This document shows positions 48,203 through 48,783 of a stretch of 64,000 nt of DNA, piece by piece. The translations under genes were made by a program, and so were the position numbers. Source of the stretch: Escherichia coli (GTDB lineage: Bacteria > Pseudomonadota > Gammaproteobacteria > Enterobacterales > Enterobacteriaceae); NCBI RefSeq assembly GCF_044324785.1, contig NZ_CP172127.1; one strand, given 5' to 3'. The number at the start of each line of letters is the position of its first letter. The stretch's first letter is position 1. The notes under the pieces are model-generated. The model did not search any database. It saw only the letters and a list, made by a program, of their open reading frames with translations, and was not told the DNA's origin.

Positions 48203-48697
48203 TTAACGAACCGTCCATGCAGGGCTGAAATCCTCTTCCTGAAACAGCTCTGTCAGCCCGCTAATCTGTTTCAGCCTCAGCACTTCATCCTGGTCCATGC
48301 CCAACTCTGTGCCAATACGCTCATCTGTCCAGCCCAGACGTGAGAGGTCCCTGACAATGTCAGACATTGACGTTACCTGGTGTTTTCCCCTGGCACGGTT
48401 ATGCCGTATGGTTGCGGCAATACGTGATGCCTGTCCCTTTCTCTCTGGATTAATACAGGCCACTGGCAGCCAGCCCTTCAGACGTTTTCTCGTATCCGCT
48501 TTCCTGCCCAGCAACTGACGATGAAAACCATCCACGACCAGATAATGCTCCTTCTCTTCCGAAACCACCACAGGCTGCGTGAATCCATCCTGCTCCAGTG
48601 AATGTTTAAGCAGTTTTTTTTCACTGGAAGACATGACATTGGGATTGTAATCGTTGGCCACCACCTCATCCGCTTTCACCCACAACACACAATCCAC
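48203..48697 (-). CDS. ParB-like nuclease-domain protein, probably 5-prime truncated by IS3
   Basis: ...VVANDYNPNV...HYLVVDGFHR... ParB N-terminal-domain pattern; ORF begins with GTG and the frame stays open into the IS3 end. Confidence 0.5.
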   Translation of the reverse strand: MDCVLWVKADEVVANDYNPNVMSSSEKKLLKHSLEQDGFTQPVVVSEEKEHYLVVDGFHRQLLGRKADTRKRLKGWLPVACINPERKGQASRIAATIRHNRARGKHQVTSMSDIVRDLSRLGWTDERIGTELGMDQDEVLRLKQISGLTELFQEEDFSPAWTVR

Positions 48698-48783
48698 AGG
48701 CTCCTGTGCAAAAGGGCTGACTGATCTTACCCAGCAATAGTGGACACAGGACTAAGTGAGTAAACTCTTAACCAGGGTGACTC

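Follow-up and report, generated by a model that had tools for sequence, protein, structure and literature searches.

What is a ParB-like open reading frame that starts with GTG and lies directly against the end of an insertion sequence: a small gene of its own, or the rest of a longer one, and does it still work? In the window, by which we mean the whole 64,000-nucleotide stretch of Escherichia coli DNA that was analysed, translation of the minus strand from 48790 to 48200 revealed an open frame comprising 172 codons and a stop codon (48721..48203), of which the program-made list of ORFs holds the GTG-started part (48203..48697, minus strand, 164 aa). The frame stays open for eight codons 5' of this GTG (VSPFAQEP, 48721..48698, minus strand) and then continues for 10 codons inside the end of the insertion sequence (IS; SCVHYCWVRS, 48751..48722), until a TAG at 48754..48752; across this boundary the translation reads ...T*SCVHYCWVRSVSPFAQEPVDCVLWV..., the asterisk being the stop. 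The IS terminus, TGATCTTACCCAGCAATAGTGGACAC, begins at 48722, 25 nt 5' of the GTG, and occurs once in the window versus zero occurrences expected by chance. These positions agree with the first-pass annotation, which had reported a GTG start and a frame running upstream into an IS terminus 25 bp away. No ATG, GTG or TTG was found in frame among the 18 open codons upstream of 48697. The GTG is preceded by an AGGAG at a distance of only 3 nt, which is a poor spacing, and it corresponds to a valine (V51) that is invariant across an 18-sequence alignment of IbrB proteins; the 164-aa ORF is a by-product of this internal codon of ibrB. As set out below, the segment is very probably a non-functional relic of a two-gene ibrA-ibrB module. 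The coordinates of the features are collected in Table 1.

Table 1. Features of the ibrB remnant and of the adjoining IS3-family element, in window coordinates
Feature	Position	Strand	Remarks
ibrB remnant (pseudogene)	48203..48721	minus	IbrB codons 43-214 plus stop codon (48205..48203)
GTG called as start by ORF finders	48695..48697	minus	internal codon Val51 of intact ibrB
Degenerate ORF fragment directly 3' of the ibrB remnant	47905-48163	minus	contains a 66-aa ORF (47963-48163)
IS3-family element	48722..52234	plus	left end is the deletion junction
Terminal inverted repeats of the IS3-family element	IRL 48722-48760; IRR 52196-52234		imperfect
IS orfA	48784-49083	plus	Pfam HTH_Tnp_1
IS orfB, split	49080-~49482 and 51773-52204	plus	distal part matches Pfam rve, rve_2, rve_3
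Group II intron in IS orfB	49483..51765 (boundaries approximate)	plus	~2.3 kb
Reverse transcriptase/maturase ORF of the group II intron	50139-51380	plus	Pfam RVT_1 and GIIM

Assignment of the reading frame to the IbrB family is unambiguous. By tblastn, the remnant matches residues 43-214 of the 214-aa IbrB of E. coli ECCNB12-2 (WP_000502867.1) with 100% identity; its DNA is likewise 100% identical to the annotated ibrB of that strain, and the frame contains no internal stops or substitutions with respect to the intact allele. The 519-nt remnant has matches over at least 80% of its length in 2,036 of 5,426 complete E. coli genomes, annotated as 'IbrB-like domain-containing protein', and phrog_2159 ('ParB-like partition protein') matches it with an E-value of 2.8e-75. 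Generic domain evidence is weak: Pfam ParB_N reached 20.4 bits (E 5e-4), under its gathering threshold of 26.3, NCBIfam nucleoid_noc gave an uninformative 23 bits (E 4e-5) against a cutoff of 315, and the ParB of H. pylori (PDB 4UMK) matches IbrB residues 50-115 with an E-value of 0.0023. The ParB N-terminal-domain pattern, on which the first-pass annotation had based its description, is nevertheless real. The remnant retains the ParB/Srx-like core with its DGFHR and RHNRARG motifs as well as the helical C-terminal part, and the residues D106, G107, F108, H109, R110, R148, H149, N150, R151, A152, G154, K155 and H156, all invariant in the 18-sequence alignment, are kept. What the remnant does not have is a complete IbrB coding sequence with its own start, which in Enterobacterales encodes 211-214 aa. 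With the first 42 codons missing and the frame running into the IS terminus, it is therefore an IbrB-family pseudogene and not a working member of the family.

On the 3' side, the remnant is followed directly by a degenerate fragment (47905..48148, or up to 48163 with its 66-aa ORF) that RefSeq describes in ECCNB12-2 and in E. coli XDL as 'hypothetical protein; frameshifted; incomplete'. Because the same fragment follows the intact ibrB in ECCNB12-2, the 3' side of the locus is undisturbed. A Pfam search of the fragment (47905-48163, minus strand) gave no match, and a guess that its 66-aa ORF was a piece of an IS256-type transposase was dropped, since Pfam did not confirm it.

The element on the 5' side combines an OrfA with HTH_Tnp_1, an OrfB with rve domains and TG...CA terminal inverted repeats, all of which are expected of the IS3 family. 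The arms of its inverted repeats are 42 nt long and 74% complementary, and the element starts with TGATC and ends with GATCA. We take its OrfA to be only ~80% identical to that of IS3, so that the element is presumably not IS3 itself; the neighbour had been called IS3 on first inspection, a name that holds for the family but not for IS3 proper, and the element carries in addition a group II intron. The intron is marked by a match to Rfam RF00029 (Intron_gpII) at 51666-51752 (64 bits), and RefSeq records an internal stop in the intron ltrA of the collinear strain XDL. A 94-nt inverted repeat with 88% complementarity joins 49507-49600 to 52235-52328, and a partial second copy of the intron 5' region lies directly outside the right inverted repeat of the IS in the opposite orientation. 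The inverted repeat suggests a trace of an earlier intron or IS rearrangement.

Comparison with ECCNB12-2 locates the break to the nucleotide. Positions 1-4969 of the ECCNB12-2 locus (L002) align with window 53690-48722 with five mismatches, and contain the same IS, intron and far flank, while positions 8001-9361 align with window 48721-47361 with a single mismatch (99.93%). As the flanks are collinear on both sides of the gap, the window lacks positions 4970-8000 of that locus. These 3,031 bp comprise debris of IS and reverse-transcriptase sequence, the stretch that precedes ibrA, the whole of ibrA itself and 126 nt from the 5' end of ibrB. At the junction the window reads ...GGGTAAGATCA joined to GTCAGCCCTTTTGCAC, where ECCNB12-2 has ...GGGTAAGATCA joined to GTATGCGC at the IS end and ...GCATGAG joined to GTCAGCCCTTTTGCAC within ibrB. 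A microhomology-mediated deletion was rejected, since only a 2-nt GT is common at the junction, and for the same reason the breakpoint is best placed precisely at the end of the IS. No target-site duplication was found around the IS (48722..52234), the flanking triplets being GAC versus CTC. A break at the outer end of the left repeat of an IS, with no target duplication, is characteristic of IS-associated adjacent deletions, and the window carries one. The proposal that the gene had been cut by the IS thus survives in that the break falls exactly at the IS terminus; a simple insertion it is not, as ~3 kb was lost next to the element. The suspicion that the promoter and first codons had been removed was well founded, with the region upstream of ibrA and 42 codons of ibrB both within the missing segment.

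We infer that an intact ancestor lost the segment by deletion. The opposite course is implausible, because ECCNB12-2 would have had to acquire precisely the piece that completes a gene pair found intact in ~2,000 genomes. In the history that we propose, the ancestral island would have carried the intron-containing IS3-family element ~1.7 kb upstream of ibrA-ibrB, and a deletion of 3,031 bp would have started precisely at the outer edge of the IS left inverted repeat. It would have taken IS debris along with the promoter region of ibrAB, ibrA in full and 42 codons from the start of ibrB, leaving codon 43 of ibrB fused to the IS terminus. Two molecular routes may have led there: an adjacent deletion mediated by the IS itself, or a second copy of the IS that inserted into ibrB and then recombined with the resident one. 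Three of the five differences from ECCNB12-2 (48734, 48820 and 48829) lie within ~110 nt of the left terminus of the IS, and this clustering hints that the left end derives from another IS copy, that is, from two-copy recombination rather than one-ended transposition.

The deleted partner is well defined. In the AR_0013 and ECCNB12-2 loci, the intact ibrB measures 645 nt (214 aa) and is directly preceded by ibrA (1,227 nt), with an overlap of 16 nt. IbrA, a protein of 408 aa named 'phosphoadenosine phosphosulfate reductase' in RefSeq, matches Pfam PAPS_reduct (E 1e-17) and DUF3440 (E 5e-34). The two genes reportedly act together. No tblastn match to IbrA was found anywhere in the 64 kb of the window. 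Among the 5,426 complete E. coli genomes, the 3' part of ibrB is present in 2,036, and ibrA with the 5' part of ibrB in 2,049; some genomes have up to three ibrB places. In the phage collection, homologues of IbrB were found in 225 records and those of IbrA in 224, and both searches gave equal numbers by organism (Flavobacterium 90, Mycobacterium 60, Streptococcus 21, Arthrobacter 12, Bacillus 8, and others). In each of the four phage loci inspected (Escherichia phage PhiR5_2, Mycobacterium phages Gaia and Phlyer, and Streptococcus phage PY1), the gene for the PAPS reductase lies immediately before the ParB-like gene and overlaps it; for the Flavobacterium phages sampled, match coordinates drawn from different but related records give the opposite order, with the ParB-like gene just upstream. 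Homologues of IbrA and IbrB therefore co-occur almost one-to-one, and pairing is the rule. The first-pass annotation had expected an upstream partner to be missing and had named IbrAB-like regulators among the two-gene modules of which ParB-like proteins form one half; both expectations proved right, as the remnant is IbrB itself and the gene preceding every intact copy in the loci above from E. coli is absent from the window.

The remnant lacks 42 codons (126 nt) at its 5' end, and how much this loss matters depends on the family considered. Among the best 120 homologues listed, almost all of them enterobacterial, most are 211-214 aa long and align over the whole query. In the 18-sequence alignment, the N-terminal 42 positions show a conserved length and some conservation of sequence, with M1, I16, F20, N34, R37 and H41 at 90% or more. 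At the level of 50%-identity cluster representatives, many relatives align only from about residue 22-29, and a subset of distant relatives of 167-192 aa begins at the equivalent of residue ~48. These short IbrB-like proteins, among them the metagenome proteins P0192, P0214 and P0222, start close to the beginning of the remnant; that of Streptococcus phage PY1 (L005 2483-2998) has 171 aa and adjoins a PAPS-reductase gene. The part of the protein that is conserved throughout the family is thus complete in the remnant, and the N-terminus that was lost is a lineage-conserved extension and not a family-wide part. An AlphaFold2 model of full-length IbrB from the 18-sequence alignment was poor (mean pLDDT 50.7, pTM 0.43); it hints, with low confidence, that residues 7-43 may form two helices. 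Single-gene homologues beginning at the position of the remnant, which would have spoken for an independent gene, were not among the sequences inspected: the enterobacterial homologues have 211-214 aa with full coverage of the N-terminus, and the short phage forms inspected adjoin a PAPS-reductase gene. The search for intact homologues and conserved neighbours that the first-pass annotation recommended led to the 214-aa IbrB with ibrA upstream in AR_0013 and ECCNB12-2.

The junction is found beyond the window. A 300-nt probe centred on it was covered fully at 100% identity in 22 of the 5,426 complete genomes, mostly from chicken or poultry and human isolates. Counted at 99% identity or more, records with the 3' part of ibrB number 54 and those with ibrA and the 5' part of ibrB 32; the difference of 22 equals the junction count. 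Because all 22 copies of the junction are identical, the event is recent and the absence of decay is uninformative. RefSeq annotates the same junction in XDL as a pseudogene ('IbrB-like domain-containing protein; incomplete; missing N-terminus'). The feature is of an ordinary and known kind, an IS-truncated pseudogene of a known gene that public annotation flags as such.

Other readings of the same segment have to be weighed against that of a dead relic. The remnant could be expressed by read-out transcription from the IS, with translation starting at GTG 48697, and the shortened IbrB core could then act without IbrA, for example as a DNA-binding regulator or as a dominant-negative partner of another IbrAB copy; such a reading, judged from sequence, is very unlikely. 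Equally improbable is its functional counterpart, a live IbrB core without a partner that, like the short phage forms, might bind DNA or nucleotides and modulate prophage or island genes, or interfere with an intact IbrAB. Both would gain from the intact ORF with an AGGAG nearby, from the completeness of the conserved ParB/Srx-like core and C-terminal helices, from the natural occurrence of IbrB-like proteins of 167-192 aa, and from those E. coli genomes that have several ibrB places. With its core complete, the remnant has a small probability of folding if synthesised, but this restores neither promoter nor partner gene. A consensus scan of the minus strand from 48700 to 49100 found no sigma-70-like promoter, the Shine-Dalgarno spacing of 3 nt is poor, and the short natural forms that were inspected are still paired with a PAPS-reductase gene, in line with the nearly one-to-one co-occurrence of IbrA and IbrB. 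Moreover, the N-terminus is conserved in the enterobacterial proteins, and the intactness of the frame is explained by recency, 22 of 22 copies being identical; the retained core and the AGGAG, too, would look the same after a recent deletion. Since no native start codon, recognisable promoter or partner gene is present, the remnant is most likely neither expressed nor functional.

A stand-alone gene of the ParB family, either a partition ParB or a defence component, with the GTG as its natural start, would fit the weak matches to ParB_N and nucleoid_noc, as well as the name 'ParB/RepB/Spo0J family partition protein' that some RefSeq records give to the product. This is a still more improbable explanation and is contradicted by the intact ibrAB loci, as the remnant is 100% identical to the internal part of a longer gene with a fixed partner and the homologues returned have 211-214 aa. 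In the collinear island of XDL, there is no annotated parA-type gene within 20 kb on either side of the junction. With regard to defence, full-length IbrB matched none of the families in PADLOC-DB 2.0, and the only match of the remnant there was a weak one to PglX (E 0.0076), probably due to chance. The default expectation for a gene abutting an IS end would be a simple insertion that split ibrB, with ibrA and the 5' part of ibrB surviving on the other side of the element. Within the window this is refuted, and we regard it as the least credible of the readings: tblastn with IbrA and full-length IbrB returned only residues 43-214 in the 64 kb, the sequence beyond the right inverted repeat (52235 onward) consists of intron and IS3-family debris, and the 3-bp target duplication is absent. 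In addition, the IS has an unchanged far flank relative to ECCNB12-2, whose intact ibrAB lies on the side of the left inverted repeat. The relic of an ibrA-ibrB module left by an adjacent deletion is thus the reading that we retain.

The nearest known system is the IbrAB island of E. coli. As cited in PMC7649339, ibrA and ibrB are overlapping genes that were cloned from ECOR-9 and activate the prophage eib immunoglobulin-binding genes (Sandt, Hopper and Hill 2002, J Bacteriol 184:3640). The remnant resembles the IbrB of this island in residues 43-214, and its downstream flank is that of the intact copy in ECCNB12-2; it differs in lacking residues 1-42, the promoter region and the overlapping upstream ibrA. 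The phage pairs phrog_2302 and phrog_2159 (PhiR5_2 IbrA/IbrB, Phlyer gp4/gp5, Gaia gp103/gp104 and that of PY1) belong to the same family, and their conserved core is the part that the remnant retains; in every example inspected the partner is adjacent, whereas that of the remnant is gone. The domain pairing of intact IbrAB is analogous to that of DndC, a PAPS-reductase-like PP-loop ATPase, and DndB in DNA phosphorothioation, a likeness of domain logic only and not of membership. DndB has been described as a ParB-superfamily protein (PMC10853773), and IbrA showed weak PADLOC matches to BrxP (E 2.4e-7) and DndC (E 9e-4). In contrast to Dnd systems, IbrB has no PADLOC match to DndB, and no dndA, dndD or dndE is found near the intact ibrAB loci. 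The similarity to partition ParB/Spo0J proteins is distant and concerns IbrB residues 50-115, where DGFHR replaces the GERR box (DGFHRQ aligned to AGERR of 4UMK), the CTP-binding GERRxRA motif of partition ParB. Besides a ParB_N score below the gathering threshold, IbrB differs from them in that its partner is a PAPS-reductase-like enzyme; no annotated parA is present next to the intact ibrAB of AR_0013 and ECCNB12-2, as was also the case within 20 kb of the XDL junction. As an IS-generated adjacent deletion, the remnant is like others in E. coli pathogenicity islands, the only twist being the group II intron in the IS.

The surroundings of the remnant are rich in mobile DNA. Window 28572-61965 is collinear with a chromosomal island of E. 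coli XDL (NZ_CP043033.1, a blood isolate), with 99.95-99.98% identity over 33 kb, and the island of XDL carries iha, amiC, sodC, sitABCD and iutA/iuc (aerobactin) together with numerous degraded IS elements. At L003 26498-27807, XDL contains an IS1203 copy, in place of which the window holds ~490 different bases (55069-55560). At 43848-47709, the window contains an IS66-family element (tnpB and tnpC fragments) that is split by an IS100/IS21-type element (istB 44813-45595, istA 45447-46613). ECCNB12-2 has an additional complete IS66 copy, absent from the window, at the equivalent of window ~47361-47368.

The locus shows how accessory modules in an E. coli pathogenicity island are eroded by IS activity. 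The interest of the intact pair lies in its combination of a PP-loop PAPS-reductase-like IbrA with a ParB/Srx-like IbrB, which is widespread in phages; the window keeps a fragment of one of the two partners. The exact junction, present in 22 complete genomes, marks a sublineage of E. coli and could serve as a typing marker.
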